A stretch of DNA of 64,000 nucleotides from an uncultured delta proteobacterium (GCA_963716725.1 CAVQUB010000034.1:119281-183280); one strand, 5' to 3'. Shown: positions 21,826-41,226, counted from the stretch's first letter. Translations and numbers: made by a program. Notes: generated by a model from the letters alone, not told the origin.

Positions 21826-21840
21826 GCTTCGGTGATCCCG

Positions 21841-21869: not shown

Positions 21870-21994
21870 TATTGCGCCAGGGCCGGATGAAGTGTGGACT
21901 TGGACAGGACGGCGTGCCCCCGCAGGCGCACGGAAGCAGGCGCAACGACCGGCGGCGCCTGGCTTCGCTTCGTCCACTGACCGCGTCCGCGGGG

Positions 21995-22993: not shown

Positions 22994-23084
22994 CGTCGAT
23001 GCTGTCCTCACCTTGAGTCCGACCGAAGGTTCTCGGGAGCACCACGCGGCGATGAAGCAAGGGCGTTCATGTACGGTTCGGCCG

Positions 23085-23833
23085 GTCTAACTGGCGTTCT
23101 CCCTCGAACGCCGGTGGCAATGTTAGCGGAAGACACCGCCGCGGGCACCAGCTCAGCGACCCAGCGCCTCCCGCACCCGAGCGAGCGCCTCCGGCAGCGC
23201 ACGCTCGACCAGTTGCGCTTCCAGCCGAAGCACGCGGTAGCCGAGCGTCGTAAGCCTGCGGTCGCGCCGAGCATCCGCCGCGCCACGACCGCGGTGTGCG
23301 CTGCCGTCCACCTCGATGATGAGCCGCCGGGCGGGCACCACGAAGTCGGCGATGAATTCCCCGACCACCACCTGGCGCCGCACCTCGACTCCGAGTTGGT
23401 GCGCGCGAAGCACGCGCCACAGCGCGGCCTCCGAGGCCGTGGGCGCCGCGCGCATCGCTGCGGCGCGGGCGGCAAGGAGCTGTTGGCGGCGGAGCTGTTG
23501 GCGGTCGCGAGCGAGCATGGTTCCTCCGAGGCCCGGCGTGGTGGGCGGGCTTCGCGGCCCAGGGCGCACGATCTGTGACACGCCGCCCTTTGCGCTCGCT
23601 CGGAGGCGCCGGCTCTCGTGCTCAGTGCGTCGCGCCTGGTGAAAACGCGGCGTGGCGCAGAGCGTGCGCCGCTGAGCGGAGCCCGACCGCCGCGCCGGGC
23701 CGAGGCCCACCCGGCTCGCATGCGTCACCTCACCGGGAGCGCGACAACCACGCGAACGCGTCCCCCTCAATCGCGCTGCGCGCGATTGGGGGGGGACCGC
23801 CGAGCGCAGCGAGGCGAGGGGGGGCAACCCGAG
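23085..23833 (-). mobile_element. DUF559 module copy 1 (half attC + ORF + about 310-nt leader)
   Basis: Near-identical to 24963-25724. Confidence 0.8.
23153..23518 (-). CDS. DUF559 (Vsr-like) endonuclease, copy 1
   Basis: MRAAPTASEAALW...RRQ...IADF...IEVDGSAH...DARRD...LGYRVLR; GGAGG SD. Confidence 0.9.
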   Translation of the reverse strand: MLARDRQQLRRQQLLAARAAAMRAAPTASEAALWRVLRAHQLGVEVRRQVVVGEFIADFVVPARRLIIEVDGSAHRGRGAADARRDRRLTTLGYRVLRLEAQLVERALPEALARVREALGR

Positions 23834-23912
23834 TGCCGAATACCGAGGAGCCGATCGCGCGGATGCGGAGGAATCTGGGGATTGGGGGGTGAGGGGCGGG
23901 CGGGGGTGACGG
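23833..23912 (+). repeat. Diverged purC 3'-end copy (VPNTEEPIARMRRNLGIGG*)
   Basis: Aligns to 19352-19430. Confidence 0.9.
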
Positions 23913-24212
23913 TGCCCTGGCTCCGGTGGCTGGGGATCACATGGTCTCAACGGATTCCAGCAACCTGCCCTGGAAAGAGAGCGGTGCGGCGAGTTCGCCC
24001 GGCCGACGCGGCACGTGGCACCGGCCGGGCAGAGGGCGGCACCGGATGAGCGGAAACTGACGAGCGGCCGCGAGGTCGACGCGGAGGGGACTTGCGTCGG
24101 TTGGGGGTGCGATTCGGCCGGCAGCGCGCAGACCGCTGCACCGACCAGGAACACGAGCAGCACAACGCATCTGACACCAGGGCTTTGGGCGTCTTGGGAA
24201 TGTGTTCAGACC

Positions 24213-24296
24213 GGAGAACGATCTGGCTTTCACCTGCAGGCGACCGAAGGAGCGCAGCGACCGACGGCGACTCTCACGTGCAACAGCATATTAGGC
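24213..24296 (-). repeat. attC site (84 bp)
   Basis: Minus strand GCCTAAT-atgctgTTGCAC...GGTGAAagccagatc-GTTCTCC right after the stop of 24304-24924. Confidence 0.7.
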
Positions 24297-24303
24297 CGTC
24301 TCC

Positions 24304-24924
24304 CTACTGGGATGAGAGTTCTTCTGCGTAGCGTCCAGCTGCGATCCTCCGCGCAGCGTGAGCGAGGTCACGGAGAAGATCGGCAAGCTCATCCCAGCTC
24401 AGTGAGGTCTTGGCGCAGTGGAGCCCGTCGTTGGCGAGCCAGAGAGCTTGTGGGTGACCTTCGGGAAGCTGCTCTGGAAGGTAGTGCTTGCTCAAATTGT
24501 ACAGCTGATTGAGTCGACTTGCCGGACTCTCGTCGCTCTTCTCGAAGAGGCGCTGGCCCGTGACTCGCGCGCCCACATCGAGACCCTGGTAGAGCGTCGC
24601 CAAGGCATGCTCAAGGTGTGACAACGCTTCGAAGTAGACACCAACTCCGCGGGACTTCGTCTTGTCTCCGCTCAAGTACTGGTTCACCGCGTCGACCCCC
24701 GCATCGTGCGCGAGTATGCTGCTACTGCTGCGCCTGATTACAGCGAAGGCGAGTTGCGTTCCCCTGGGGCTGCATGGCGCGCTGAAGACTGAATTGAGGA
24801 CGAACTGCTGTAACCAGTGGGCGCCGTCCGCGAACTCGTCCCGGAGCGGCTTCGCCGAACAGGCGCCCAAGAGCGAGAGTTCCTGTGAAACGAAGGTATC
24901 GAGAGCAAAGTTGCTGAGCGGCAT
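24304..24924 (-). CDS. Hypothetical cassette protein (helical, possible HEPN-like)
   Basis: Clean ORF bounded by attC-like sequences; RLNQLYNLSKH. Confidence 0.7.
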   Translation of the reverse strand: MPLSNFALDTFVSQELSLLGACSAKPLRDEFADGAHWLQQFVLNSVFSAPCSPRGTQLAFAVIRRSSSSILAHDAGVDAVNQYLSGDKTKSRGVGVYFEALSHLEHALATLYQGLDVGARVTGQRLFEKSDESPASRLNQLYNLSKHYLPEQLPEGHPQALWLANDGLHCAKTSLSWDELADLLRDLAHAARRIAAGRYAEELSSQ

Positions 24925-24962
24925 CGCTTCTTCTGGCCCAGGGACCGCGGGATGTGGAGTCA

Positions 24963-25724
24963 GCTAACGATCGCCCTGGCTGGCGTTCTCCCTCGAACGC
25001 CGATGGCAATGATAGCGGAAGGCACGGCCGCGGGCACCAGCTCAGCGCCCCAGCGCCTCCCGCACCCGGGCGAGCGCCACCGGCAGCGCGCGCTCGACGA
25101 GCTCCGCTTCCAGCCGAAGCACGCGATAGCCGAGCTTCGCGAGCTTGCGGTCCCGCCGAGCGTCAGCGGCGCGGTGTGCGCGGTGTGCGCTGCCGTCCAC
25201 TTCGATCACGAGCCGCACGCAAGGCACGACGAAGTCCGCGATCAGCCCGCCGTTCACCACCTGGCGGCGCACTTCGACTCCGAGTTGGTGCGCGCGAAGC
25301 ACGCGCCAGAGCGCGGCCTCCGAGGCCGTTGGCGCGACACGCATCGCGGCGGCGCGGGCGGCAAGGAGCTGTTGGCGGCGGAGCTGTTGGCGGTCGCGAG
25401 CGAGCATGGTTCCTCCGAGGCCCGGCGTGGTGGGCGGGCTTCGCAAGCCTTGGCGCACGATCTGTGACACGCCGCCCTTTGCGCTCGCTCGGAGGCGCCG
25501 GCTCTCGTGCTCAGTGCGTCGCGCCTGGTGAAGGCGCGGCGTGGCGCAGAGCGTGCGCCGGTTAAGCGCAGCCCGCCCGCCGCGTCGGGCCGAGGCCCAC
25601 CCGGCTCGCATGCGTCACCTCACCGGGAGCGCGACAACCACGCGAACGCGTCCCCCCCAATCGCGCGCAGCGCGATTAAGGGGGGGACCGCCGAGCGCAG
25701 TGAGGCGAGGGGGGGCAACCCGAG
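24963..25724 (-). mobile_element. DUF559 module copy 2
   Basis: Same half attC, ORF, leader and GCAACCCGAG boundary as copy 1. Confidence 0.8.
25042..25407 (-). CDS. DUF559 (Vsr-like) endonuclease, copy 2
   Basis: LIADF...IEVDGSAH...DARRDRKL..LGYRVLR. Confidence 0.9.
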   Translation of the reverse strand: MLARDRQQLRRQQLLAARAAAMRVAPTASEAALWRVLRAHQLGVEVRRQVVNGGLIADFVVPCVRLVIEVDGSAHRAHRAADARRDRKLAKLGYRVLRLEAELVERALPVALARVREALGR

Positions 25725-25846
25725 TGCCGAATACGGAAGAGCCGGTTGGGAGGATGCGGAGGAATCTGGGAATTGGGTGAGGGGCGGGCGGGGCTGACGG
25801 GTGGGGGATCCCCCCGGTCGAACACCCCGCTGTCTGGTTGGCGATT
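25724..25846 (+). repeat. purC 3' end + downstream copy, near-identical to resident
   Basis: 1 mismatch in 123 nt versus 19352-19474. Confidence 0.95.
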
Positions 25847-25983
25847 GAGGCGTTCAGCAGCGAACGCCGAGAGTCATCGCAGCAGACCGCGCGCTTGCCG
25901 CAGACAGCGAGGGCGTCCGCGACGCGCGACGGACGGGGAAACTCGCCTGGCCGGCGTTCGGCGGGTGCAACGCCAAGTTAGAC
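25837..25983 (-). repeat. attC-like site; R'' GTCTAAC overlaps the TAA of 25978-26370
   Basis: GCGAACGCCG...CGGCGTTCGGCGGGTGCAACGCCAA-GTTAGAC. Confidence 0.75.
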
Positions 25984-26370
25984 AGCGCCAGTGAGCTCCT
26001 TGTAGCGCCAATAGGATTCGAAAAAGGCATCGTGGAGCATGGCGCGGTCGTCGTCGTCGGTAGGTTCAACTAGATCCAGCCCAAGCCAGTCCGCGCAGGG
26101 GACGAGTTCCGGATCGCCTACGCCGTCGATCAAACAGAACAAGCGGAAGATCGTTGTCGCACACGCATCGGCAACGACCTTCTGGAGGGCCGAGTGGGCG
26201 TCCGGGGACAAGCCCAGCGTCTGCAGTGCACGGAGTTCCGAGTCGGACAGCACGGGCTCCGGCGGGTAGCCGACCTTGGCGGAAGCGCGCCCCAGACCCT
26301 CGACCGCCTCGCACGCGGCGTCACGAATCAATCGGTGGACTTCGACGAGGAGAGCATCACGAGGGGTCAT
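25978..26370 (-). CDS. Hypothetical cassette protein
   Basis: ORF fills the cassette; ends MLHDAFFESYW. Confidence 0.7.
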   Translation of the reverse strand: MTPRDALLVEVHRLIRDAACEAVEGLGRASAKVGYPPEPVLSDSELRALQTLGLSPDAHSALQKVVADACATTIFRLFCLIDGVGDPELVPCADWLGLDLVEPTDDDDRAMLHDAFFESYWRYKELTGAV

Positions 26371-26385
26371 GAGGAACGCCCGGCT

Positions 26386-26551
26386 GTATAACGAGAGTGG
26401 CGTTCACTCGCGAACGCCGGAGGACATCGTAGCAGAGCGCGAGGCGTGGCAGAGGCGGGCGAGTGCCGAAGACAGGGAGGGCGCCCGCGACGCGGAACGG
26501 ACGGTGAAGTCGGCAAGGCCGGCGTTCGACGGGTGGGACGGCAAGTTAGAC
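26386..26551 (-). repeat. attC site (166 bp)
   Basis: GTATAAC...GTTAGAC with internal inverted repeat CGAACGCCGG/CCGGCGTTCG. Confidence 0.8.
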
Positions 26552-26569
26552 AGCCCTCGCGCCGCTCGT

Positions 26570-26917
26570 TCACTCCGCCGGCGCGTCCGTTGCCCCGGCG
26601 TCGCAGGGGTTGAGGCTGAGGCTGCTGCTGGTGAGCGTGCAACTCCATGTCCCGGTCGGGCAAGAACAAGCGTACTGCCTGAGCCCCGTCACGTACTGCA
26701 CTCCGGGTTCGCAAAGAAACTGGACCGAAAGCGAGCAAGCGGCGCCGGTGACGCACCCACCGTTCAACAGCTGGTGGACGATGGCGCCATCCGCGGGACA
26801 GCTTGGATCGATTGGAGTTGGCGCGGCATCAGGACCCTTTCCGGTCGCGGAATTGTCGTCTGCGCAGCCGGACAGAAGCAGCGCAGGAATCGAGAGGCGG
26901 CAGATCAGGGAGCGCAC
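26570..26917 (-). CDS. Cys-rich lipoprotein (cassette)
   Basis: Lipobox LLSGC; CSCPTGTWSC. Confidence 0.7.
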   Translation of the reverse strand: MRSLICRLSIPALLLSGCADDNSATGKGPDAAPTPIDPSCPADGAIVHQLLNGGCVTGAACSLSVQFLCEPGVQYVTGLRQYACSCPTGTWSCTLTSSSLSLNPCDAGATDAPAE

Positions 26918-26936
26918 TGAACCTTCCCGGTGGCCT

Positions 26937-27101
26937 GTATAACGAGACACACGTTCACCGGCGAACGCCGAGCGTCAAGTCGTCAGTCGGCAAGGCGCAA
27001 CAGACGCGGGCGAGTGCCGCGTCAGAATGTTCGCCCGCGGAAGCGGAACGGATGGTGAAGTCGGCACGACCGGCATTCGGCGGGTGCAACGTGAGTTATG
27101 C
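26937..27101 (-). repeat. attC site (165 bp), near-identical to 32088-32252
   Basis: GTATAAC...GTTATGC. Confidence 0.8.
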
Positions 27102-27152
27102 CGCTCTGCGAAGCGCCTCGACCGACTGCACATGAGTTGTCAGAATCAACGG

Positions 27153-27325
27153 ATGATTGCCGAGACGGTCGTCCTTGTCGGTGCCGGCGTGGTGGCCAAC
27201 GGCTGGGATCCAGTGATCGCCGCGCTGCGGCGCACGTACTTCCCCGACATGCGTTCGCCGGAGGCCGCCAATTTCGCGATGGCGCGGTTCGTGTACGCGG
27301 CCCGGCTGACGCGCCCTGGGGGCGC
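27153..27325 (+). pseudogene. Truncated ORF with a SIR2-like N-terminus
   Basis: TVVLVGAGVV...W motif; ends at the IS junction. Confidence 0.3.
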
Positions 27326-28017
27326 AACGTAGCGCGCACCGAGTTCCTGCGCCTTCGCCAGGACCTCGAAAATGTCCGCTTCGCGGTCCATCACGTGAAT
27401 GAGCGCGCTGCCGGGGCAGCGTGCATGGACGGCCTCGAGCATGGCCGGCCAGCGCAGTGATTCGCGCTCGGGGTCTCTCCGACTGACAGACCGGCGGCGC
27501 CCGCGTCCACCCTTGTGTACGAGGCGGACGTGTCGCTGTAGACCCAGAACTCCGAGTGGCACTCGCTCCTCGCCGGGAAGCACGGCCAGCGCCACGTGTG
27601 CGAGAAACCCCTGGCTGCCGCCGGACGTGACGCCCAACCCAGCTCGCCGACTGGCGCCGCCGAGTGATACTTCGGTCGTATCGTGCGCGACGATACACAG
27701 GCCAGCGGAACTCACACGCTCCACCGTCGCCGACAGGTGCGGGTCAAGGATCTGCTCCGCGTCGAACTGCTCGTTGCCCAGGAATCGGTAGACACCCCCA
27801 AGCTCGGACGGAGTGTCGACAGCCTGCGGAAACCCAACACCGGGCGCCGCCATCAGTTTCTCAGCGAGCCAACCGAGCCTGTCACTGCGCCGCTTATCGC
27901 CGAGCTGAGAGCCCTCGAACTCGTCCGAAATCGACCGCCCTAACCATTCTGTTGCCGGCATTTCTCCCGTAGATCACACGCGCCGTCCGCTCGCAATGAG
28001 ATGTGTATGATCTTGAG
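27325..28017 (-). mobile_element. IS4-family (IS50/Tn5-like) remnant: one end + 5' half of transposase (ATG at 27961)
   Basis: EFEGSQLGDKRRSDRL, HDTTEV, HVMDREADIFE; end sequence CTcaagatcATACACATCT (minus strand 28017-27999) matches the Tn5 end core ATACACATCT. Confidence 0.85.
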
Positions 28018-28084
28018 CCGAAGGGGTGGGACTTCCAAGGGTCGTGCTCGGCGAGCAAGCGCGTGATGGCGACCCGGGTCGTGG

Positions 28085-28175
28085 CGACCTCGGCCCTCTC
28101 CAAGAACGCCGGCCAATTCTCCTCCACCGTCTGGTAGAGCACGGTGCTCTCCGGCCGCTGGCGAGTGCGCGAGCG
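28085..28175 (-). pseudogene. Fragment of an IS91-like transposase N-terminus
   Basis: RQRPESTVLYQTVEENWPAFLERAE. Confidence 0.5.
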
Positions 28176-28396
28176 GACCGGCGGTGCGAGAGCGTGTGCG
28201 CCGAAGCCCAATTCACGGCCGCATCAGCGAGCGGCGTGCCAGGTGGGCGGACCCGAAAAGTCGGGTGGATCTGCTCGCCGCAATTGGGGAAGCGGCGAAG
28301 TCAGGTGGCGATCGCCACCTGGACTCGCAGCGAAGGCCGAGACAGACCGGCGAATACGCGATGCTCGGAGCCGCCGCCCAGAACGGCTGGGCCCGT

Positions 28397-28454
28397 CCCC
28401 CCCATTCGCGCGACAGCGCGAATTTGGGGGGGACCGCCGAGCGCAGCGAGGCGA
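28397..28454 (+). repeat. REP-like hairpin of the DUF559 module (isolated copy)
   Basis: CCCCCCCATTCGCGC-gaca-GCGCGAATttGGGGGGGACCGCCGAGCGCAGCGAGGCG. Confidence 0.75.
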
Positions 28455-28902
28455 CGACCCTGGGAAGTCCCTGACGAGGGAGGGGGGGCAACACAGGTCG
28501 GAGGCGGATGGGTGAGAGGGCGCGGCAGACGGTCGGCGGTCGAGGGGTGCAACGGCCGTACGTGGCGTCGCGCTGTCCGGCGCATTCAAGGCGGAGCTCG
28601 ACCTGTCCATCGGAGCAGTCGGCGATTGCAGACACGGCAGCGTGGCTCAGGACCAGATCCCCAAACGCGGGCAATTCCGCGGGCGTTGGGCACCAGGAGT
28701 TGGAAGCGTGTTCAAGCTCGAGGCCCCCGCATGTCCCGCCGGCAACGTGACCACGAGCGCGTTCACGAGACTCCCGCTTCAGCCGGCTCCGAATCTGTCC
28801 TGCCCCTGATCGGCCGAGGACTTCTGGCCGGCGCGAGGCAGATCGACAACCGTCAGCATCCAAGTCACGCTGGCCCAGCTCCGAGCGTCTCACGACGGTT
28901 GG

Positions 28903-29868
28903 TTGGCCTGCGCCATGCGAGCTTCCTCTTCCACTTTGAAATCCCAATGGATTGGCGCTCTGCGGCTAGACCCTGCGCAGCATCCGCAGGCACGGGCGCA
29001 TCTGAGCGCTGCCAGTGGCTTGGTGCGATCGGGCCAGACGCTGTTTGTGTTGGCCGACGACGAGCTGCACCTGGGGTTGTTCGAAGACACCGTCGCCGCT
29101 GGCACGCCACCTGCGCCCGGAGGGTTGTTGCAGTTGCTGGATGGCGATTTGCCCGGAGACGCAGCGCAGCGCAAGAAGGCCAAACCAGACTTTGAAACGC
29201 TGGCCCACTTGCCAACCTTGCCCGGCTGTGGGGGCGGCGCGCTGCTGGCGTTGGGCTCGGGCTCCAAGCCCAACCGCGAGATGGCCGTGCTGCTGGCGCT
29301 GGCTGGTCCCGGTCAACTCAGTGGGCGCAAAGCCACGGTGTCTTTGTCTGCTTTGTATGCGCGGCTGCGCGAGCAGTTTTCCGATTTGAATATCGAGGGC
29401 GCGTGGGTGGACAGTGGCGACCTGCATTTGCTGCAGCGGGGCAACAAGGGCGATGCGCGCAGCGCCTGCATCCGATACGACTGGGAGATGACTGCGCCCT
29501 GGCTGGCAGGTGCGCGAGCACAGCCACCCGCCATCAAGAGCGTGCAGGTGCTGGACTTGGGGACCGTGGACGGGGTGCCGCTGAGCCTGACCGACGGTGT
29601 GCCGCTGCCGGGCGGTGACTGGCTGTTCAGCGCGGTGGCCGAAGACACTAGCGACAGCGTGGCAGACGGTGCCTGTGTGGCATCGGCATTGGGGGTGGTG
29701 GCCGCAGACGGCCAGCTGCGCCGCCTGACGAGTCTGCTGGGCGCGCCCAAGGTGGAGGGGATTGCGGTCCAGACCGAGGGTGATGACTGGCTGGTGACGA
29801 TGGTGACCGACCCCGACGACGCGGCCGTGGCCTCGCAACTCGCGGCCGTGCGCCTGTCCCGCATCTAG
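28903..29868 (+). CDS. Hypothetical beta-propeller-like protein (DUF6929-like), atypical codon usage, 5' end probably lost
   Basis: [24 protein letters not shown] motifs. Confidence 0.65.
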
Positions 29869-29915
29869 TTCCCCAGCGCGATGAGCTGAACGGACAGGAC
29901 GCTGCGGTTCGCCCT

Positions 29916-30025
29916 GAGCTGCCAGACCAGGACGTGACCGTGAGAGGCGCGGTCAGCATCGCCCGCCGGCTGCAAGATCCGCTCTCCGAGTTGGTGAAGA
30001 TCGATCCCAAGAGCGTCGGCGTCGG
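29916..30025 (+). pseudogene. 110-bp internal fragment of tex
   Basis: Matches 39930-40039 with 3 substitutions. Confidence 0.9.
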
Positions 30026-30149
30026 GGGCGCCGTATGATCCTCAGGAGAGCGCATGCCGAAGAAGCTGAGCGCCTGGGTCGGGTTGGGCTGCGTGATGCT
30101 CGCTGCTGCCGGTTGCTCCGCACCCTCGGACGACGCGCTGAGCCTGCGG

Positions 30150-30487
30150 GTGAGGGAGGCAAAGCACGACCGGCCTTCGGCGGGTTCATCGTCTGCCATA
30201 ATTCTCGTTAGCGATGGTTGTAAGTTTGTGAGATCAGCGAAGCAACGGCACTCAACCTGCGACGCGAAGCAGCAGGGGTAGTTGGTGCACGATGCCACGA
30301 TCTCGCCCTTTGCAACGCCAGCATCCAGCGGACGGCAGGTGCAGGTCTTGTTGACGTTGTCGGCAGAGCAGTGCCATGCGGGCTCGTCGGACACGTGACC
30401 GCAGTTGATCGCCGGTGCGGCAATGAACGTGGCGAGGCATACGCGCACGGTCGTGCGCCAGGTTTGCTGAGCCCTGACACTCGCCAT
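30150..30487 (-). pseudogene. Cys-rich secreted cassette protein, 3'-truncated
   Basis: Starts just after the attC R'; CTC...SCTNYPCC...CRC; end approximate. Confidence 0.4.
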
Positions 30488-30497
30488 TGGTGTTGCC

Positions 30498-30593
30498 GCC
30501 TAACGAGGCCGCTCAGCCGCGAGCGGCGCCACGAGTCTACCACCCTTGCGAGACGGGCGAACGCCGGTCGTCGGCTGCAGCGGCTTGTTAGAC
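30498..30593 (-). repeat. Canonical attC site (96 bp)
   Basis: Minus strand GTCTAAC-AAGCCGCTGCAGCCGAC...GCGGCTGAGCGGCCTC-GTTAGGC; R'' overlaps a TAA. Confidence 0.9.
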
Positions 30594-30905
30594 CGCTGTA
30601 GCCAACTCGAGAAAGCACGTACGAAGTTCCTGCTCGACGGCCGGCGTCGGAACTCCAGCCGAGGCGAGGAAGTCAGCGAATAGAAGGAGCGTTCCGTAAA
30701 GATCTTCACCGTCAGTCGGGTACAGCGCGCAGATCACGGCGCGGACGGCAGCAGCGTGCGACGGATCTGAGGCGGCATCAACGAAATGCCAGCACGCAAC
30801 GCGCGCGTTCACGACATCCGCTAGCGGTTGGGTTCCGTGGTGATAGTCCCGAATCACGAGCAGTGCGGTGCGAGCGGTCTCCGGCAGGCCCTCCTCAATA
30901 AGCCG
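30588..30905 (-). pseudogene. 5'-truncated cassette gene
   Basis: Plausible helical protein C-terminus ending in the attC R''; no start codon; abuts a DUF559 leader. Confidence 0.55.
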
Positions 30906-30907
30906 GT

Positions 30908-31250
30908 TTCTCCGAGGCCCGGCACCCCTTCGAGTGTCACGAAGCGCGTCGTGGTGGGCGGGCTTCGCGATCCCTGGCGCACGATCTGTGACGCGCCGCC
31001 CGTTGCGCTTCGCTCGGAGGCGCCGGCTCTCGAGCTCGGGACGTCGCGTCTCGCAGGCGCGCGGCGTGGCGCAGACCGTGCGCCGCCGAGCGGAGCCCGA
31101 CCGCCACGCAGAGCCGAGGCCCACCCGGCTCGCGCACGTCACCTCAGCGGGAGCGCGGCGACCACGCGAACGCGCCCCCCCAATCGCGCGCAGCGCGATT
31201 AAGGGGGGGACCGCCGAGCGCAGTGAGGCGAGGGGGGGGGGCAACCCGAG
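30908..31250 (-). repeat. DUF559 module leader without the ORF (copy 3)
   Basis: Aligns to 23522-23833 including hairpin and GCAACCCGAG boundary. Confidence 0.85.
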
Positions 31251-31343
31251 CGGAGGAATTTGGGGATCGCGGGGTGAGAGGCGGGCGGGGGGAACGGGTG
31301 GGGGATCCCCCCGGTCGAACACCCCGCTGTCTGGTTGACGATT
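31251..31343 (+). repeat. Diverged purC tail (RRNLGIAG*) + downstream palindrome
   Basis: Aligns to 19385-19474. Confidence 0.85.
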
Positions 31344-31498
31344 GAGGCGTTCGGCAACGAACGCCGAGACGAAGGGTATCAGACCGCCGAGCGTTTTCGA
31401 GACGGCGCGTGCCGCAACAAATTGGGCGCCGGCCGCCGCGGAACGGACGGTGATGCTCGCCACTGCCGGTGTTCGGCGGGTGCAACGTCCAGTTATGC
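31333..31498 (-). repeat. attC-like site (166 bp)
   Basis: GGTTGAC...GTTCGGCGGGTGCAACGTCCA-GTTATGC. Confidence 0.75.
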
Positions 31499-31503
31499 GG
31501 TAC

Positions 31504-31797
31504 TCAGCCTCGCGTTTGCCAGGTTGCCGGGTGGCGCTTGCCGTGAGCGACTGCGACGATCGCGATCAAGTCGGGATAGACCCGATAGTACACGCCATAC
31601 GGGAACCGGTTGAGGACCGTGCACCTCAGGCCGCGATACCGGACAGCGAACGAAGTCGGACCTTCGCCGATCTGGCGGACGGCGTCGTCGAGTTCAGCGC
31701 GAAACACGAAACCGAGCCCAGCGCCTTGAGTCTCGTACCACTGGAACGCCTCGAGCGCGTCGACCTCGGCCTCCGTCGTGAAGACGACTGGGGTCAA
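31504..31797 (-). CDS. Type II TA toxin, RelE/ParE family
   Basis: FTTEAEVDALEAFQWYE...GLG...LNRFPYGVYY...IVAVAHGKRHP..W. Confidence 0.9.
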   Translation of the reverse strand: MTPVVFTTEAEVDALEAFQWYETQGAGLGFVFRAELDDAVRQIGEGPTSFAVRYRGLRCTVLNRFPYGVYYRVYPDLIAIVAVAHGKRHPATWQTRG

Positions 31798-32009
31798 CGT
31801 TTTCCGGTCGTCATGCGAGCCCGGACCTGGTCCCAAGGCACGCCGGTCGGGCCCTCCCGATCAAGACGATCGAGTCGTCGGTCCAGCTCAGCGCGAAGCT
31901 CCGACGAAAGCGGGAGGTCCTCGGGCTTGAAGCTGCCCCAGAGTTCGTCGATAAGATCGAGCTTCTCGTCGGCGGTGAGATTCGAGATGTCCACGGCAGG
32001 TTTCGCCAC
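31794..32009 (-). CDS. Addiction-module antitoxin
   Basis: LTADEKLDLIDELWGS...ELDRRL...GVPWDQVRAR; 4-bp overlap with the toxin. Confidence 0.85.
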   Translation of the reverse strand: MAKPAVDISNLTADEKLDLIDELWGSFKPEDLPLSSELRAELDRRLDRLDREGPTGVPWDQVRARMTTGKR

Positions 32010-32087
32010 CCCCGCATGATGCCTCCGGTGGGAAGATCGCGCCAGAACCACCAACCGCGAAGGTGCAGCCATGGCTACCATGCGGCC

Positions 32088-32252
32088 GGATAACGAGACA
32101 CACGTTCACCCGCGAACGCCGAGCGTCAAGTCGTCAGTCGGCAAGGCGCAACAGACGCGGGCGAGTGCCGCATCAGAATGTTCGCCCGCGGAAGCGGAAC
32201 GGACGGTGAAGTCGGCAAGACCGGCGTTCGGCGGGTGCAACGTGAGTTATGC
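32088..32252 (-). repeat. attC site (165 bp)
   Basis: GGATAAC...GTTATGC; duplicate of 26937-27101. Confidence 0.8.
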
Positions 32253-32304
32253 AGCCTCAACCACGACTCGAATGGTTCGGCGGCGCGAAGCACCACGTCT
32301 GAGC

Positions 32305-33084
32305 TCATCGCGTGAACTCTCGCGACAACGTCGCGAGCACGTCGCCAAACGTCTCTTTGATTTTGCCTTTGGAGTACCGAATTTGCTGAATGCCCTGAAC
32401 ATTGCTGAACTCCTCGCACCCTTCCTCGAGCAGCAAGATTGTGTTTCGGAAGCCCAGCCGCCCTTGGAACAACCCTGCCTCGTGGACAACGTTCTGGCGC
32501 GCACGAAGTGTTCCATCGGCCAGTTCGTCTTCGGCCGTCAGAACTAGCAACGCGAACGCAGAGGTGCTCAGCATTTCTTCGAGTACGTCGCGGACGGTGT
32601 GCCCGGCCCGGGCGCCGCTCTCGAATGCTTGCACCGGGTAGCCGTGGAGCTCGTGTAGGTGATCCTTCAGGTCGCGCCACTGCGCGCTCCTTCCGTGCCC
32701 GATGAAGAGTACGGGCTTTGCACGCTTCGCTGGGGCCGGCTGTGGAATGCGCTTCGCAGCCGAAAGCGCGCTCTCGAAAATTGCGAACAGACTTTCGATT
32801 GTTGCACGGGAAGCGGCGCTGACGGAGGTGCGCGTGCGCCAGCCCCAAGCCGTCTTGCCGTCCGAAGAGCCCTGGTACGCGCCATACGCGCCGACGCTGA
32901 CAGCCAGGGCGTCCCCACGAAACATGACGCGGGAATCCCCGCGGGACCGCCTGTAGTCGGCGGCAAACTCGGGAAACGAGTCGTGGTCCCACTCGGCGCC
33001 ATCAACGGTGATCACGAGAGACAGGGGCGCACATGACTCGTCCAGCCTTTGGCACTCCTTCAGCACGCTTTCCAGTGTTTCCAC
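32305..33084 (-). CDS. TIR-like nucleotide-binding domain protein (Cap12/PycTIR-type TIR family)
   Basis: FIGHGRS...FALLVLTAED...ARQNVVHEAGLFQGRLG...SNVQG. Confidence 0.85.
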   Translation of the reverse strand: METLESVLKECQRLDESCAPLSLVITVDGAEWDHDSFPEFAADYRRSRGDSRVMFRGDALAVSVGAYGAYQGSSDGKTAWGWRTRTSVSAASRATIESLFAIFESALSAAKRIPQPAPAKRAKPVLFIGHGRSAQWRDLKDHLHELHGYPVQAFESGARAGHTVRDVLEEMLSTSAFALLVLTAEDELADGTLRARQNVVHEAGLFQGRLGFRNTILLLEEGCEEFSNVQGIQQIRYSKGKIKETFGDVLATLSREFTR

Positions 33085-33160
33085 CCCGAAGTGGGTGAAG
33101 TCGAATACCTTGGTCTTCCGCTCGGGACTTCTCAGTGAGCGGGTCGCTCTCGCGCGGTCC

Positions 33161-33326
33161 GCCCAACGGTTTGGCGTTCACCCGCGAACGCCGAGACCAA
33201 GAGATACCAGAGAGCGCGGCGGTGCACACGCGGGCGAGTGCCGCAGAACGAAGGGTGCACGCGGCTGTGGAACGGACGGTTCAGAGCGGTACGGCCGGCG
33301 GTCGGCGGGTGCAACGTGAGTTAGGC
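33161..33326 (-). repeat. attC site (166 bp)
   Basis: GCCCAAC-ggtttggcgTTCACCCGC...GCGGGTGCAACGTGA-GTTAGGC. Confidence 0.85.
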
Positions 33327-33356
33327 GGCGTCAAGAACACGTGGTAAGTTTGGGGA

Positions 33357-33566
33357 ATGCGCACGTACACGGCAGTCGTGGAACGAGACGCCGACACCGG
33401 CTGGTACGTCGGCCACGTACCGGGTTGGCCCGGTGCGCACTCGCAAGGCGCGACAGAGGACGAGCTCCGTCGGAATCTCGAGGAAGTCATCGCGATGCTC
33501 CTCGAGGATGGCGAGCCGACGCTCGAGTCAGAGTTCGTGGGGACGCAGACAGTCCGGGTTGCGTAG
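33357..33566 (+). CDS. hicB: HicB-family antitoxin (short form)
   Basis: YVGHVPGWPGAHSQGATEDELRRNLEEVI. Confidence 0.85.
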   Translation: MRTYTAVVERDADTGWYVGHVPGWPGAHSQGATEDELRRNLEEVIAMLLEDGEPTLESEFVGTQTVRVA

Positions 33567-33569
33567 GAC

Positions 33570-33794
33570 GTGGGTGACGTTCCCGTTCTGAAACCGCGCG
33601 AAGTGGTCGCGATCCTGGCTCATCTAGGCTTCGCTGAGGTGCGACAACGCGGCTCGCACAAGCAATTTCGCCACTCGGATGGGCGCGTCACGACAGTGCC
33701 GGTTCACACGGGTCGGGACATCTCGCCAAGCCTGGTACGCCAGATCGCGCGCGACATTGGTATGGACGTGCGCGATTTCATCGCGCAGCGGTGA
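33570..33794 (+). CDS. hicA: HicA-family mRNA interferase toxin
   Basis: LGFAEVRQRGSHKQFRH..GRVTTVPVH. Confidence 0.9.
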   Translation: MGDVPVLKPREVVAILAHLGFAEVRQRGSHKQFRHSDGRVTTVPVHTGRDISPSLVRQIARDIGMDVRDFIAQR

Positions 33795-33813
33795 CGAGGG
33801 TCGCCGGGAGTCC

Positions 33814-33843
33814 GCCCAACTGGCGTTCTCCCTCGAACGCCGG
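33814..33843 (-). repeat. Half attC of the DUF559-module type
   Basis: GCCCAACTGGCGTTCTCCCTCGAACGCCGG, as at 23085 and 36774. Confidence 0.75.
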
Positions 33844-34753: not shown

Positions 34754-34787
34754 ACGGCGCGGATCCCTCGCTGCATGCGCAAACCGT

Positions 34788-35486: not shown

Positions 35487-36184
35487 GCTGGGACCTCGCA
35501 GCGAAGGGCTACGGAGTCAATCTAGTTTCGCGCGCCATACCTAGCGGAAGGAAAGGTCGACGTTGGCTTCACGCACGGGTCCTGTTGGCGCGTGCCCAGC
35601 TTGGATGTCGTAGTTCACACCTCGCCCTCGTCAGCGAGCCGCGTGCCAAGCAGGTGACGCCAGAATTTCCCGTGACTCCGCTCGCCCTCCAGGTGGCGAA
35701 CTGGCGAAGTCTGACACGATGAGTTTCGAATTGAATGAGGTCTCCGAGGGCGCAACTGGCACCGTGCAAGCCTACGTCGGAGTGTCTGGGCCTAGTTCCC
35801 AGCAGGGATGGCGGACTCCAGCGGGCGCTTGCACGATTGATGTCACCGAGCACACGGTGGTTGATGACAACTATCAGGACATGCGCGAGTACCGAATCGG
35901 GGGTACGGGCTCCTGCGACCAGGGCGCGTCTGGCACGTCGGGAATCGTGGACATCGGCGCGTTTTCCATGCGTGGCGTTCTCTTCTGGGAGAAGTGACCG
36001 ATCCCGCGCGAGCCCCCCGAACGTCTTGCCGCTCAGCCGCAAGCACCAGCAGAGTCGACTCCACGAGACCGCCCCGGAGGGGGTCTCGTCGCTCGCGCGC
36101 GGGACCTAGACGACCATCTGTTCGCAGTGCACCTTCTATCGCGGTGTGAGGGCGGTGGTGGCGTCCACGCGGCGCCGAGGTTCG

Positions 36185-36277
36185 CAAGAACCGAGGCGCT
36201 AAGCCCCGCGCGCAGGGCGGAACGAACAGCAGCCAGTCGGAAAGCCCGCGGTCGTCTGCTGCAACGTCCTGTTAGGC
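36185..36277 (-). repeat. attC-like site; R'' GCCTAAC overlaps the TAA of 36272-36760
   Basis: GTCTGCTGCAACGTCCT-GTTAGGC; the other arm is disrupted (possible arm at about 36015 CCCGAACGTCTTGCCGCTCAGCCGC). Confidence 0.6.
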
Positions 36278-36760
36278 ATCCTCGGCGCCTTCGTCGTAGA
36301 TCCTTGAATAGTTACCGAACTCGGTACCCTTCAAATCGGTGGCGACGACCTGTTCCGCGACGTCATAGTCGACGACGTAGCAGCACACTTCCATCGTGTC
36401 CGAGCCAATACTTCCACCGTCGCACATGCCGAGCCCCGTCCACCCCAACGTTTGGTCCATCCTGTCCTGCAATCGGTATCGCTTCTTCAAATCGGCAGCA
36501 TCCCCGAATCCGTCGACGGTGTATTCAATCAAGAGGATCCGGTGGTCATCGAGTTCGATTGGTTGGTAACCATCACTCACGAAACGATCAATCTCCGCCT
36601 GGACCTTCGTCTCGACCTTGCGCAGCCCGGTCGACCTAACCGTCTTGGATTCGCCTTTCGCGCCCAGACTTCCCCAATGCACCGTGTGAGAACCGTCGTC
36701 GTTGTCCCACGTTTCCCAGTAGAGAATCTGGCTCGGGGTGCGCCTATAAAGCTTTAGCAC
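36272..36760 (-). CDS. Hypothetical cassette protein with WGR-like N-terminus
   Basis: YWETW...VHWGSLG; GWTGLGMCDGGSIG. Confidence 0.75.
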   Translation of the reverse strand: MLKLYRRTPSQILYWETWDNDDGSHTVHWGSLGAKGESKTVRSTGLRKVETKVQAEIDRFVSDGYQPIELDDHRILLIEYTVDGFGDAADLKKRYRLQDRMDQTLGWTGLGMCDGGSIGSDTMEVCCYVVDYDVAEQVVATDLKGTEFGNYSRIYDEGAEDA

Positions 36761-36773
36761 CTGCTTGATGCCT

Positions 36774-36930
36774 GCCTAACTGGCGTTCTCCCTCGAACGC
36801 CGGTGGCAACGATAGCGGAAGACACGGCCGCGGGCACCAGCTCACCGGCCCAGCGCCGCCCGCACCCGCTCGAGCGCCACCGGCAGCGCGCGCTCGACGA
36901 GCGCAGTGAGGCGAGGGGGGGCAACCCGAG
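36774..36930 (-). mobile_element. Internally deleted DUF559 module (copy 4)
   Basis: Half attC + last about 19 codons of the ORF joined directly to GCGCAGTGAGGCGAGGGGGGGCAACCCGAG. Confidence 0.85.
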
Positions 36931-36971
36931 CGGAGCAGCTTGGTGATCGTGGGTGCTGAGGCAACAGCGAC

Positions 36972-37694: not shown

Positions 37695-37844
37695 GCCTGG
37701 TACTCCCTCGTCCCCACGAGGTTACCGCATTCGCCTGCAAGGTTCCGAAGAGGCGCGGGGGCGCGGGGGCGCGGGCACGCGGGGCCACGCGTGCCGGCGA
37801 CACGGTCGGAAGATGGAACGAAATGCTCGGACATGCGGGCCAGC

Positions 37845-38075
37845 CCGCAGCGCGGCCTCCGAAGCCGTGGGCGCCGCGCGCATCGAGGCGGTGCGGCCGC
37901 CAAGGACCTGTTGACGACGGAGCTGTTGATGGTCGCGAGCGAGCATGGTTCCTCCGAGGCCCGCCGGGCTCGCTCGGCCGCGACAACTCCACGCGAACGT
38001 GTCCCCCCCGATCGCGCGCAGCGCGATTGAGGGGGGGACCGCCGAGCGCAGCGAGGCGAGGGGGGGCAACCCGAG
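37845..38075 (-). mobile_element. Truncated DUF559 module (copy 5): 5' 34 codons + shortened leader
   Basis: MLARDHQQLRRQQ...MRAAPTASEAAL; hairpin and GCAACCCGAG boundary. Confidence 0.85.
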
Positions 38076-38132
38076 CGCGTATGGCGATCGCGGCTCTGGA
38101 TCAACGCGTCTGCTGCAACGGGCAGCCCCCCG

Positions 38133-38549: not shown

Positions 38550-38657
38550 TCTCTTGCGCTCCGCCTACGGTGCCGAGGCACCGCGCTCGGGCGGCGCAAC
38601 CCGCAGGGCGTCCTGGCGCTTGACGGCGGCAGGCGCCCGCGTTGAAGAATGCGGAGC

Positions 38658-40814
38658 ATGCGTGACGCCGCTCTGGTCGAGAAGATCGCGCGCGAGCTTC
38701 AGGTCGCGCCCCGCTCGGTGACAGCCGCGCTCGAACTCTTCGACTGCGGCGCGACCGTTCCGTTCGTCGCGCGCTATCGCAAAGAGGCCACCGACGGGCT
38801 CGACGAGGTGGCGCTGCGGGAGATCGCCGCGCGCGCCAAGTACCTCGATGACCTCGCGGATCGCCGGCGCGTCGTGCTCGAGACCATCGCGGGCCAGGGC
38901 AAGCTCACGGCCGAGCTCGAGCGCGCCATCGCAGCCTGCGAGACCAAGGCGGAGCTCGAGGCCTTGTACGCGCCCTTCAAGAGCAAGCGCAGGACGCGGG
39001 GTCAGATGGCCAGGGAGCTGGGGCTGGAGCCGCTGGCGGATTGGATCTGGCAGCGGCGCGGTCCGGGCAACCCCGAGGCGGCCGCGCTCCCGTTCCTGGA
39101 GCGGAGGCCGGAAATCGGGTCGGTCGAAGCTGCGCTCTCAGGAGCCGTCGACATTTGTGCCGAGCGCATCGCCGAAAAGCCGAGCGCTCGCCGCTTGGTG
39201 CAAGACGAGCTGCGCCGCGGCACGCTCCGCGTCAAGAAGGCTCCAAAGTTTCGCGAGCAGAAGACCAAATTCGACAACTACGAGAAGTTCGGCGAGCCGG
39301 TGGCGAGAGTCGCCTCGCACCGCTACCTGGCCATCTGTCGTGGGGAGGCCGAAGGCGTGCTCAAGCCGAGCTTCGAGCTCGACGAAGCGCGGGTCGCGGG
39401 CGCGCTCGAGCGGACGTTGGGGCTCTCGGGCAACGACCCCTGGACCAAGCTCCTCGCTCGCGCCGTGGACGACGCGCTCACGCGGCTGTTGATACCCTCG
39501 GCACGCTCCAGCGTGCGTGCCGAGCTCGGGGACGCCGCAGAGCGCGACGCCATCAAGGTGTTCGCGAAGAACCTCGAGCAGCTGTTGCTCGCCGCGCCCT
39601 TCGGCGCGCGCTGGGTCCTCGGGATCGACCCGGGGCAGCGCACGGGCTGCAAGTGCGTCGTGGTCGATGCGACCGGCGGCCTGATCGAGCACACGGTCAT
39701 CTACTTGGTTCAAGGACCGCGAGCGGAGCAGGCGGCCGAGAAGACGCTGTCGGCGCTGCTCGATCGCCACCCCATTCTGGCCGTCGCAGTCGGCAACGGC
39801 ACCCACGGCCGTGAGACCGAGAATTTCGTGCGCGGGCTGTTGAAGCGCCGTGGGAAGCCCGAGGTCCTGTGCGTCTCGGTCAACGAAGCGGGCGCCAGCG
39901 TCTACTCGGCGAGCGAGCTCGCGCGGCACGAGCTCCCAGACCAGGACGTGACCGTGAGAGGCGCGGTCAGCATCGCCCGCCGGCTGCAGGATCCGCTCTC
40001 CGAGCTGGTGAAGATCGATCCCAAGAGCGTCGGCGTCGGTCAGTATCAGCACGACGTGAGCGAAAGCTTGCTCTGCGCCAAGCTCGACGAAGTGGTGGAG
40101 AGCTGCGTCAACCGCGTGGGCGTGGAGGTCAACACCGCCAGCCCGTCGCTGTTGGCTCGCGTCTCGGGTATCGGCGAGAAGCTGGCGCAGCGCATCGCCG
40201 ATCATCGCGCAGAGAGCGGCCGCTTCCGCTCGCGGCGCGATCTCGCCAAGGTGACCGGGCTCGGCGCCCGCACCTTCGAGCAAGCGGCGGGCTTTCTGCG
40301 CGTGCACGGCGGGGCACACCCCCTCGATGCGAGCGGAGTTCATCCCGAACGCTACGCTTTGGTCGAGCGCATGGCGCGGGATCTCGGCGTCAGCCTAGAG
40401 AAGCTGATCGGGGCTCCAAAGCTGGCAACCCTAGACCGCACGCGATATCTGTCCGCCGACGTCGGCGCCTACACGCTCGACCACATCTTGACCGAGCTCG
40501 ACAAGCCCGGGCGCGACCCGCGGGCCGAGTTCGAAGCCCCGGGCTTCCGCGACGATGTGCGCAGCATCGAGGAAGTGACGCCTGGCATGCTGCTCGAGGG
40601 GCGCGTGACGAACGTCACCGCCTTCGGCGCCTTCGTAGACATCGGGGTGCACCAAGACGGCCTGGTTCACGTCTCCGAATTGGCCGACCGCTTCGTGAAG
40701 GATCCGAGCGAGGTCGTCCGGGTGGGTGACCTGATTCGTGTCCGGGTGCTCAGCGTCGATCTCGATCGCAAACGCATCAGCCTGAGCGCGAAGGCGAGGC
40801 TCGGGATCACGTAA
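38658..40814 (+). CDS. tex: Tex RNA-binding transcriptional accessory protein
   Basis: [61 protein letters not shown]-terminal S1 domain. Confidence 0.95.
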   Translation: MRDAALVEKIARELQVAPRSVTAALELFDCGATVPFVARYRKEATDGLDEVALREIAARAKYLDDLADRRRVVLETIAGQGKLTAELERAIAACETKAELEALYAPFKSKRRTRGQMARELGLEPLADWIWQRRGPGNPEAAALPFLERRPEIGSVEAALSGAVDICAERIAEKPSARRLVQDELRRGTLRVKKAPKFREQKTKFDNYEKFGEPVARVASHRYLAICRGEAEGVLKPSFELDEARVAGALERTLGLSGNDPWTKLLARAVDDALTRLLIPSARSSVRAELGDAAERDAIKVFAKNLEQLLLAAPFGARWVLGIDPGQRTGCKCVVVDATGGLIEHTVIYLVQGPRAEQAAEKTLSALLDRHPILAVAVGNGTHGRETENFVRGLLKRRGKPEVLCVSVNEAGASVYSASELARHELPDQDVTVRGAVSIARRLQDPLSELVKIDPKSVGVGQYQHDVSESLLCAKLDEVVESCVNRVGVEVNTASPSLLARVSGIGEKLAQRIADHRAESGRFRSRRDLAKVTGLGARTFEQAAGFLRVHGGAHPLDASGVHPERYALVERMARDLGVSLEKLIGAPKLATLDRTRYLSADVGAYTLDHILTELDKPGRDPRAEFEAPGFRDDVRSIEEVTPGMLLEGRVTNVTAFGAFVDIGVHQDGLVHVSELADRFVKDPSEVVRVGDLIRVRVLSVDLDRKRISLSAKARLGIT

Positions 40815-40921
40815 CGTGGGGTACCGCGACAGGAGGATGCTGAGAATGGCTGCGGGCGCGGAACGGACGGCGGAGTTCGCCTGGCCCGCGCTCGTCTGCT
40901 GCAACGCCCAGCCAGACGGCT

Positions 40922-41095
40922 TCATCTCAGGAAGGCGAATCTGGGGTCACCGTCACCGTCGAGACCTTCAACAAGCGCGCCAAGGAAAGACTCAATCGAC
41001 TCGGCCACCACGTCGGTCGCTTCGAACTCGGGCTCTGAACCGGACACAACCGCGCCGGGTACCCCGTCGTTGAGTTCTACGGCAACGTAGGAATA
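40922..41095 (-). pseudogene. C-terminal fragment resembling SMI1/KNR4-type immunity proteins
   Basis: YVAVEL...GAVV....PEFE....VAESIESFL; preceded by a degenerate attC arm at 40857-40917. Confidence 0.4.
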
Positions 41096-41097
41096 GA

Positions 41098-41226
41098 TGG
41101 CAATGATAGCGGAAGACACGGCCGCGGGCACTAGCTCAGCGACCCAGCGCCGCGCGCGTCGCGGCGGCGCGGTCGGCAAGGAGCTGTTGATGGTCGCGAG
41201 CCAGCATGGTTCTTCCGAGGCCCGGC
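41098..41226 (-). mobile_element. Collapsed DUF559 module remnant (copy 6)
   Basis: TGGCAATGATAGCGGAAGACACGGCCGCGGGCAC...then the ORF start region and CCGAGGCCCGGC. Confidence 0.8.

Follow-up and report, generated by a model that had tools for sequence, protein, structure and literature searches.

The stretch of DNA analyzed here, a 64,000-nt segment from an uncultured delta proteobacterium (contig C34:119281-183280 of the ~67% G+C, 7.9-Mb draft genome G000; hereafter the window), contained purC and, between it and a methyltransferase gene, a 22-kb integron cassette array (19461-41226). This array held two intact 121-aa genes of the DUF559 nuclease family, four decayed copies of the same unit, and four identical orphan arms resembling one half of the cassette recombination site attC. 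The explanation favored here, which is given an even chance of being right, is that the DUF559 unit ends in a recombination site of attI type and heads runs of cassettes; its copies would have multiplied mainly by recombination between purC and a copied purC 3' end carried by the unit (purC'), together with turnover by the integrase, and would then have decayed. All positions are those of the whole window, and the minus strand is taken as the top strand of its array, because the integrase genes (intI) were read toward the C8 and C7 arrays of the same genome and the cassette genes of the window lay on the minus strand.

DUF559 units and remnants of the window

In gene orientation, the ~0.8-kb unit was organized as purC' (~57 nt of the purC end)–GC-rich hairpin–~330-nt leader–open reading frame (ORF)–40-nt 3' untranslated region (3'UTR)–arm. 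The two intact copies with their D..E.DG..H motif, as called in an earlier sequence-only reading of this DNA, were borne out by ORF analysis, Pfam (DUF559, PF04480; scores of 89.6 and 81.1 bits, where the cut-off is 20.6), the motif ADF...IEVDGSAH kept in both, and alignment of both proteins to PDB 3HRL (E 5e-11). The genes of copies 1 and 2 were 87% identical, with a synonymous divergence (dS) of 0.33 and a ratio of nonsynonymous to synonymous divergence (dN/dS) of 0.23. Across all ten pairs among copy 1, copy 2, a further copy on C5 of the same genome, and two orthologues, dN/dS ranged from 0.17 to 0.23; dS was 0.82-0.87 between either window copy and the C5 copy, and 0.36 to the orthologue of the sister species G003. 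The product is identified by these comparisons as a predicted Vsr-like PD-(D/E)xK nuclease under purifying selection.

The four remnants proposed earlier (r3 to r6) proved to be real deletion products, one of which (r4) was joined at a 5-nt microhomology, GCTCG. The proposal that r4 was a non-autonomous element was not supported: this deleted form was unique in the genome, unlike a miniature inverted-repeat transposable element, its junction was the microhomology join, and neither terminal inverted repeats nor short target duplications were seen at the unit ends. A likeness between the unit 5' end and the arm (~10/15 positions by eye) was dropped as a candidate pair of terminal inverted repeats. 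The purC' just upstream of r4 had the same 32-nt deletion as that in r3, and upstream of r3 lay the same spacer as at purC, followed by the attC at 31330-31500.

Conservation of the arm and its likeness to attI

The arm had the general form GGCGTTCGAGGGAGAACGCCAG|TTRRRY (the bar marking the predicted crossover), started 40 nt past the DUF559 stop codon, and read on the plus strand as core plus T plus GGCGTTC TCCCTC GAACGCC; a fifth exact copy was found behind the C5 DUF559 gene. All five copies were identical at 22/22 positions although the genes differed by a dS of 0.33-0.87, and the adjacent 3'UTR varied at 6 of ~40 positions among the window copies (hand count on printed sequences) and had a 20-nt insertion on C5. 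The arm travels with the unit and does not consist of pieces of different targets, because it was identical in all five copies and unlike the canonical arms; it is inherited with the unit and constrained. An arm stood behind DUF559 sequence in copy 1, copy 2, r4, and the C5 copy; the arm at 33814 (r7) had no DUF559 sequence attached, and r6 had lost its arm.

That the arms were half-attC-like and lacked an R'' side was upheld. Hidden Markov models (HMMs) of the half-sites recognized the four window arms as orphan L'-R' halves (E 3.5e-4 to 7.7e-4), while, among the local attCs, they found both halves in seven full ones and in three that were degenerate. In copy 1, copy 2, and r4, the arm paired with its upstream flank no better than shuffled sequences did (z +1.0, -0.1, and -0.1), whereas the halves of three canonical attCs paired with z from -4.1 to -6.4, none of 200 shuffles being as good. 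Membership of the arm in the local family of integron recombination sites was likewise supported, its palindrome agreeing with the canonical attC arm at 18/20 positions. The five arms nevertheless differed from all 21 canonical arms in the 6-nt center and, wherever a core was recognizable, in the core spacing, which was 1 nt in the arm and about 5 nt in canonical attCs. This identity among the arms and their difference from every canonical center speak against the earlier view that DUF559 had targeted separate attCs.

Homology among the copies stopped at ...CAG|, and the next six bases were TTAGAC, TTAGGC, TTGGGC, CCAGGG, and CCAGGC; the attC arm sequence was thus followed by a G|TTRRRY boundary in three of the five (TTAGAC, TTAGGC, TTGGGC), the other two having CCAGGG and CCAGGC. 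Behind the window arms stood unrelated cassettes: a DUF3800-like ORF, ORFs of 206 aa and 162 aa whose attCs were degenerate and truncated, respectively, and a HicBA cassette with a full attC.

An attI site is the double-strand partner in attI x attC integration. Compared over 28 nt in a register fixed by the crossover, the arms shared 18-21/28 positions with the two attI sites of the genome, although the stretch GGTAGAATG read GGGAGAACG in the arm (7/9); in the same register, attI sites of different species shared 19-22/28, and 0.005% of 20,000 random window 28-mers reached 18. The arm did not lie directly beside intI, the upstream position being taken by DUF559. The exact motif GGTAGAATGNNNGTTA occurred at eight sites in the seven genomes of the genus, six of them beside intI; the other two lay ~150 nt behind G001 DUF559 genes of this clade, each was followed by a different cassette, and one of these runs reached purC.

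The exact arm was found in none of 60 other genomes of the family, where up to two mismatches gave only two single sites (G013 and G078). In one genome each of 185,579 species, the exact 20-mer of the arm matched three unrelated records, none with DUF559 nearby, which is attributed to chance.

Two other pairings were considered and rejected. A miniature attC within the 3'UTR was suggested by an R''-like GCTAAC 9 nt from the arm hairpin, which was present in copy 1 only (GCTATC elsewhere), and folding gave only the 7-10-bp hairpin of the arm itself. The arm at 33814 and the orphan R''-L'' half at 36241 did pair (z -3.9), but 36171-36278 belonged to a different attC type: the C7 attC with 94% likeness to it had its own arm with another center, so the pairing reflects complementarity general to the family.

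Origin of the window copies at purC

The last ~57 nt of purC were the source of the purC' tags, and a tag was found on every window copy with a surviving 5' end, namely copy 1, copy 2, r3, r4, and r5. The closest homologues (82-88% aa identity) came from G002 and G003, where they faced purC in convergent orientation; a copy of the purC 3' end bordered the unit on its 5' side, and no attC lay nearby. The junction between purC' and the unit was the same in G000 and G003, and G002 had a 9-nt deletion there; because the junction was common to them, the purC'-unit pair predates these species. The window copies are accordingly descendants of one resident unit of the purC locus rather than separate attC hits, because the purC' tag was shared and an array-free unit lay beside purC in two sister species; separate insertions are not supported, the tag marking a single origin. 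The copies are not recent, copy 1 and copy 2 being about as far apart (dS 0.33) as the G003 orthologue (0.36).

The 5' flank of copy 2 matched the true purC flank at 57/58 plus 66/67 positions (123/125), and past the R' end, inside the attC, the match fell to 113/135; one unrelated attC pair, taken as a control, was identical at 123/148. A recent homologous exchange between purC and purC' is evident, because this flank matched at 123/125 against 87% for the genes, with the attC interior at the level of the unrelated pair.

Synteny of the window with G002 and G003 broke at 19399 and resumed at 41818-41820, the ~22 kb between being the variable part. The purC 3' side was a recurrent array site in the genus: two further genomes had cassette arrays abutting the purC stop codon, namely G004 (L102, G004:C67:1-5716), where an almost complete attC lay at a distance of 10 nt, and G001 (L100, G001:C116:1-5600), where an R''-L'' half lay ~60 nt away.

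DUF559 units elsewhere in the genome and in relatives

The same DUF559 clade was found inside cassette arrays in three species. In G005, four DUF559 units ended in a shared tail followed by three different sequences; two of these tails shared 17-20/28 positions with attI sites and the other two 10-14/28, and this genome had both layouts seen in G000.

The C5 copy lay in a small degenerate cassette cluster, with the R''-L'' half of the preceding cassette ~60 nt upstream (E 4.1e-5, whole-genome scan). An orthologue of that preceding cassette with an intact attC was held by G002, and on C5 the attC center of ~108 nt plus the L'-R' half were replaced by the unit and its own arm. The C5 arrangement is a replacement and not a clean insertion.

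A general association of DUF559 loci with attC sites was not supported. Among the DUF559 loci of other genomes, an attC lay within 1.5 kb at 3/28, all of this clade, and none at 25/28; because the attC HMM was specific to the genus, its finding none at the 18 loci from other genera counts for little. None of the 28 loci had the arm. In G002, 20 of 22 DUF559 regions had no attC nearby and its largest array, of 58 kb, had no DUF559 match; a metagenome scan gave two distant DUF559 loci (55-61% identity) without attC.

The sequence-only reading had also described a small nuclease-encoding element. The discrete, multi-copy nature of the unit in the genus stood, one relative having 27 matches; a role of the nuclease in the rearrangements was not supported. 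In G002, units of ~805 bp and ~99% identity were present at separate loci and as a head-to-tail pair (L045-L048, G002:C1:1146500-1345000), and one unit was inserted in the ribosome-binding site of another. The 3' end of the G002 unit carried (CTT)n and (CGTGGCGT)n repeats, with neither inverted repeats nor short target duplications seen. At three loci, the unit was flanked by a direct copy of its downstream sequence: 59-80 nt at purC (L006, L027), 142 nt at G002:C3:400050 (L043, G002:C3:396000-404000), and 107 nt at G001:C149:102269 (L028); at purC, what had been duplicated was the end (3') of the convergent gene, and inspection by eye suggested the same for G002:C3. These duplications of 59-142 nt look like an unusually long insertion footprint.

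Explanations for the units and their arms

Under the favored explanation, a DUF559 unit with a structured leader would have resided beside purC before an array grew there. The unit would end in one double-strand IntI site of attI type, which combines an attC-like palindrome with attI spacing to a G|TTRRRY core and so appears as half an attC. The next cassette would have been joined at this site, each unit thereby heading a cassette run as intI-attI does in the complete integrons of the genus. Copies would then have multiplied mainly through gene conversion or unequal homologous recombination, with the purC 3' end and the 57-nt purC' as partners. Unequal exchange of this kind between direct repeats would copy entire blocks made up of unit, site, and cassettes. 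An integrase supplied in trans would have exchanged cassettes on both sides of the unit, and microhomology deletions would later have led to the decay of copies.

Several points weigh against this history. Unequal crossing-over at purC cannot account for the C5 copy, which lay at a different locus. The 5' side of copy 1 did not lie at an attC core, ~320 nt lying between. The arm was without the invariant GGTAGAATG of intI-linked attI sites; two of the five arms had GCC for GTT at the core, three attC cores on the purC-type spacer were also degenerate, and the arm sites may, given such cores, be dead. The comparisons moreover covered seven genomes of one genus, mostly draft assemblies.

A bolder reading, which is tentative and probably too strong, would make the chromosomal nuclease unit with an acquired attI-type site both a secondary acceptor of cassettes and a hitchhiker: the integrase of the genome, acting in trans, would join cassettes to it and also move it among attCs. 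If this were true, integrase-less arrays would have been seeded at purC, an ordinary purC-tagged gene, which on C5 lay between two attC halves, would have become a cassette-like mobile unit, and the recruitment of genes and arrays by integrons would here have left a trace that can be seen.

The main rival, active movement in itself, is considered unlikely. The integrase would here excise the unit as a circle by recombination of the arm with the upstream attC and return it at any attC through the efficient attI x attC recombination, the unit being a mimic of a cassette with attI. Such movement would account for one 5' flank (starting |CCAACC or |TCAACC) joined to three attCs, whose interiors were 80-85% alike against 83% in the unrelated control, with a sharp break at the R' end; it would also fit the arm-bearing copy in the separate small C5 cluster, the several copies in G001 and G005 each followed by a different cassette, and the strict conservation of the arm. 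The shared 5' flank is, however, also the true purC flank, and purC/purC' recombination would yield the same pattern; the copies were old (dS 0.33 against 0.36 to the G003 orthologue), copy 1 and r4 did not start at an attC core, and the 5' junction cores were GCC or GTC, not GTT. Compared with an ordinary cassette, the unit had a 3' boundary at a G|TT-type core, a 5' boundary at an attC R' end only in copy 2 and r3, with degenerate cores, and no complete attC.

It is improbable that the unit was an ordinary cassette whose full attC lost the R''-L'' half and the center, the copies being passive duplicates and the arm functionless. Other truncated attCs did occur in the array (36171-36278, 40883-40911, and 24213-24297), microhomology deletions were seen, and all copies had a single origin. 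A decayed attC would not be expected to show the attI-like spacing of 1 nt against about 5 nt, nor an arm kept at 22/22 positions across a dS of up to 0.87; the clade had the exact attI core in G001 and attI-like tails in G005, and the unit was ancestrally a chromosomal gene beside purC and not a cassette.

Least probable is the model of the sequence-only reading, in which the DUF559 nuclease cuts attCs or folded strands and the element inserts there in the manner of the IS1111-attC elements and group IIC-attC introns, for although the units act as discrete repeats in the genus, the 59-142-nt direct flanking copies at three loci resemble an insertion footprint, and the C5 unit lay between an R''-L'' half and the arm where the G002 cassette has an intact attC, the arms were identical by descent and not target halves, the ~108-nt C5 attC center was replaced and not split, its L'-R' half being the unit's own, 25/28 loci of other genomes and 20/22 regions of G002 had no attC nearby while the largest G002 array had no DUF559, and none of the documented footprints was at an attC, one being at the purC 3' end and the others at two further loci.

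Relation to known systems

Clusters of attC sites lacking integrases (CALINs) have been defined as such by Cury et al. 2016 (PMC4889954). The window array resembled sedentary chromosomal integrons and CALINs in its same-oriented attC hairpins between small genes, mostly of unknown function or of toxin-antitoxin type, and in lacking intI, which stood beside sister arrays of the same genome. It was unlike CALINs in that a purC'-tagged, non-cassette chromosomal unit was interspersed and each arm-bearing copy ended in a single attI-type site, not an attC.

The arm was like attI in its G|TTRRRY core after an integrase-binding box, in its place at the head of cassette runs, and in the exact attI cores behind DUF559 in G001. 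It was unlike attI in lying away from intI, in occurring several times per array, in lacking the invariant GGTAGAATG, and in its attC-type palindrome.

A gene for a transposase or a reverse transcriptase is carried by the IS1111-attC elements and group IIC-attC introns, which insert at one set position in various attCs that are otherwise left intact. The unit differed from them in that DUF559 was its only gene, its site was inherited with it, and no intact attC split by it was found. Like the unit, both groups are small attC-associated elements of cassette arrays (PMC3001079).

Enzymes that nick T/G mismatches belong to the Vsr/DUF559/DUF2726 PD-(D/E)xK group (PMC3424549; Caulobacter VsrA, PMC12907096), as does, according to a table in PMC3424549, a homing endonuclease of a group I intron. 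The product of the unit falls in this group by Pfam, motif, and 3HRL alignment, and no cytosine methyltransferase partner for it was present in the window, the sole methyltransferase cassette being UbiE-like.

Integrase-mediated insertion of cassettes outside att sites has also been described (bioRxiv 10.1101/2022.09.11.507474). Such insertion could seed cassettes in the purC-DUF559 interval and needs no attI-like site, whereas a conserved attI-type site stood at the junctions here. In the literature search, which covered mostly titles and the beginnings of abstracts, no report was met of a multi-copy DUF559 unit with a structured leader or with a link to integrons.

The origin of integrase-less arrays and the first linkage of ordinary genes to integron sites are general questions, which this locus addresses as a datable, tagged case: the unit was array-free in two sister species and embedded in arrays in three others. 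If the arm were active, attI-type sites would not be confined to the side of the integrase gene, and arrays could be seeded and extended in trans. The unit is in addition an uncharacterized multi-copy element, with a covarying leader that includes the ribosome-binding site and long flanking duplications at some loci.

The cassette array and its attC sites

The attC family was represented by a repeat of ~175 nt with ends RYYTAAC...GTTAKRC, which nhmmer matched 33 times in the genome; three clusters of same-oriented copies accounted for 28 of these matches (C8, 11; C7, 9; window, 8). Three canonical repeats folded as single-stranded DNA formed long hairpins in which the terminal stem was followed by an unpaired spacer, and the bulged bases were mostly on the 3' half of the plus strand. 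The C8 array was adjoined by a full integron integrase gene (TIGR02249, 443.8 bits, cut-off 265) and the C7 array by a partial intI, both read toward the cassettes; G002 had the same layout. No TIGR02249 match was found on contig C34, so the window array had no integrase of its own; its seven full attCs plus degenerate ones at 19461-33327 fit the definition of a CALIN (at least two same-oriented attCs, no intI nearby). What occupies 19461-41226 is a sedentary integron cassette array that lacks an integrase of its own, an intact intI being present on C8 of the same genome. The genes between its attCs were mostly on the minus strand. The coordinates of the array features are listed in Table 1.

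Table 1. Coordinates, strands, and supporting evidence of the features in and beside the cassette array
Feature	Position	Strand	Evidence and remarks
purC (SAICAR synthetase)	18407-19408	+	Pfam SAICAR_synt, E 2.4e-64; left border of variable region
Full attC, most distal of array	19461-19629	-	nhmmer E 6.5e-34, both halves; R' core degenerate (G|CCAACC, top strand); joined to 50-nt spacer behind purC
DUF3800-like ORF	21995-23011	-	First ORF behind copy 1 arm; weak Pfam match below cut-off (E 0.0025, 19 bits vs 21)
Copy 1 arm	23085-23112	-	Top strand GGCGTTCGAGGGAGAACGCCAG|TTAGAC; predicted crossover between 23091 and 23090; 20/28 to attI sites of the genome, fixed register
DUF559 copy 1	23153-23518	-	121 aa, intact; GGAGG ribosome-binding site 5 nt before ATG
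Copy 1 leader	23519-23832	-	Predicted nested long-range helix including ribosome-binding site; GC-rich hairpin at unit 5' end
purC' of copy 1, with stop codon	23833-23892	+	52/58 identical to purC 19349-19408; unit junction as in G003
Degenerate short attC of the 206-aa ORF cassette (24304-24924, between copies 2 and 1)	24213-24297	-	Left and right halves weak (E 0.044 and 2.8)
Copy 2 arm	24973-25000	-	Identical 22-mer; core G|CCAGGG
DUF559 copy 2	25042-25407	-	121 aa, intact; ORF and Pfam
Copy 2 leader and 5' GC hairpin	25408-25723	-	Alignment, RNAalifold
purC' of copy 2, spacer, and R' end of next attC	25724-25847	+	Near-identical to true purC flank 19352-19475
Full attC upstream of copy 2	25833-25985	-	nhmmer E 6.3e-39; both halves; long hairpin fold
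Other canonical attCs	26384-26553, 26935-27102, 31330-31500, 32086-32254, 33158-33327	-	nhmmer and half-site HMMs
Degenerate attC	30496-30594	-	Half-site HMMs
Remnant r3	30940-31280	-	Leader, GC hairpin, purC' with 32-nt deletion; no ORF part, ends just before start codon
Lone arm r7	33814-33841	-	Core G|TTGGGC; no DUF559 sequence upstream; HicBA cassette and attC 33158-33327 follow
Truncated attC (R''-L'' and half of center)	36171-36278	-	Behind the 162-aa ORF that follows the r4 arm; right half E 5.1e-8, no left half
r4 arm	36774-36801	-	Core G|TTAGGC
Remnant r4	36774-36932	-	Arm (core G|TTAGGC), 3'UTR, last ~28 codons, joined to first 31 nt of unit
Remnant r5	37845-38128	-	Diverged purC', GC hairpin, leader with internal deletion, first ~38 codons
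attC R''-L'' remnant	40883-40911		Near Tex gene
Remnant r6	41096-41226	-	Ribosome-binding site, in-frame 23-codon mini-ORF, 3'UTR; cut just before arm, arm lost

Between the truncated attC at 36171-36278 and the attC at C7:156979-157085, of which it matched the right 108 nt, identity was 94%. The AAC core was kept by 17 of the 22 full attCs of the genome and not by the three joined to the purC-type spacer. Cores by the DUF559 unit often had CC or TC for TT (19468-19474, 25840-25846, 31337-31343, 24973-24979, and C5:377614-377619), the top strand reading G|CCAACC in two cases and G|TCAACC, G|CCAGGG, and G|CCAGGC in one each; such cores next to the unit may be inactivated junctions.

The 50-nt spacer behind purC and purC' was considered as a vestigial R''-L'' half, and no half-site HMM match and no pairing with the arm (z +1.0) were found. 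A resemblance by eye, in that the spacer shared GTTCGAC and a 10-mer with R''-L'' halves, was not used. Its alignment to the C5 flank scored 65, against a mean of 48.6, a standard deviation of 5.8, and a maximum of 68.5 in shuffles.

Leader and hairpin of the DUF559 unit

In the leader (23519-23720 and 25408-25610, minus strand), a conserved nested long-range structure was predicted: an outer helix took in the GGAGG ribosome-binding site, and an inner helix, enclosing a variable insert of ~70 nt, joined the blocks GGCGCACG..CCACGCCGC and GCGGCGTG..CGTGCGCC. RNAalifold, applied to 17 leaders from several genera, gave 38 pairs, 19 of them with compensatory changes, and Rfam had no match; the leader is a candidate cis-regulatory RNA. 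Over the whole window, no Rfam family was found at gathering thresholds, and a search of 23000-26100 at E values up to 5 gave only a sub-threshold GA-cis match on the GC hairpin (23 bits against 34.7). Neither tRNA nor tmRNA genes were found in the window.

The GC-rich hairpin was present at 23746-23832, 25636-25723, 28394-28454, 31161-31249, and 37979-38078 of the window, and at C5:22809, C3:150484, and C6:108277. It also stood alone at many sites in G000 and the sister genomes, with compensatory differences between species and a likeness to dispersed repeats of repetitive extragenic palindromic (REP) type.

Other genes of the array

The remaining contents of the array included (i) an N-terminal fragment of an IS4-type transposase at 27146-27961 (minus strand; Tnp_DNA_bind, E 7.8e-14), (ii) a cassette of a ParE-like toxin plus antitoxin at 31504-32081 (minus strand), (iii) a cassette of a CAP12/Pycsar-type TIR-domain protein at 32305-33084 (minus strand), and (iv) the HicB/HicA cassette at 33357-33794 (plus strand), which was in reverse orientation. 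The Tex gene, the only one of the genome, was located at 38649-40814 (plus strand) inside the variable array region between r5 and r6, and the syntenic interval of G002 and G003 was without Tex.

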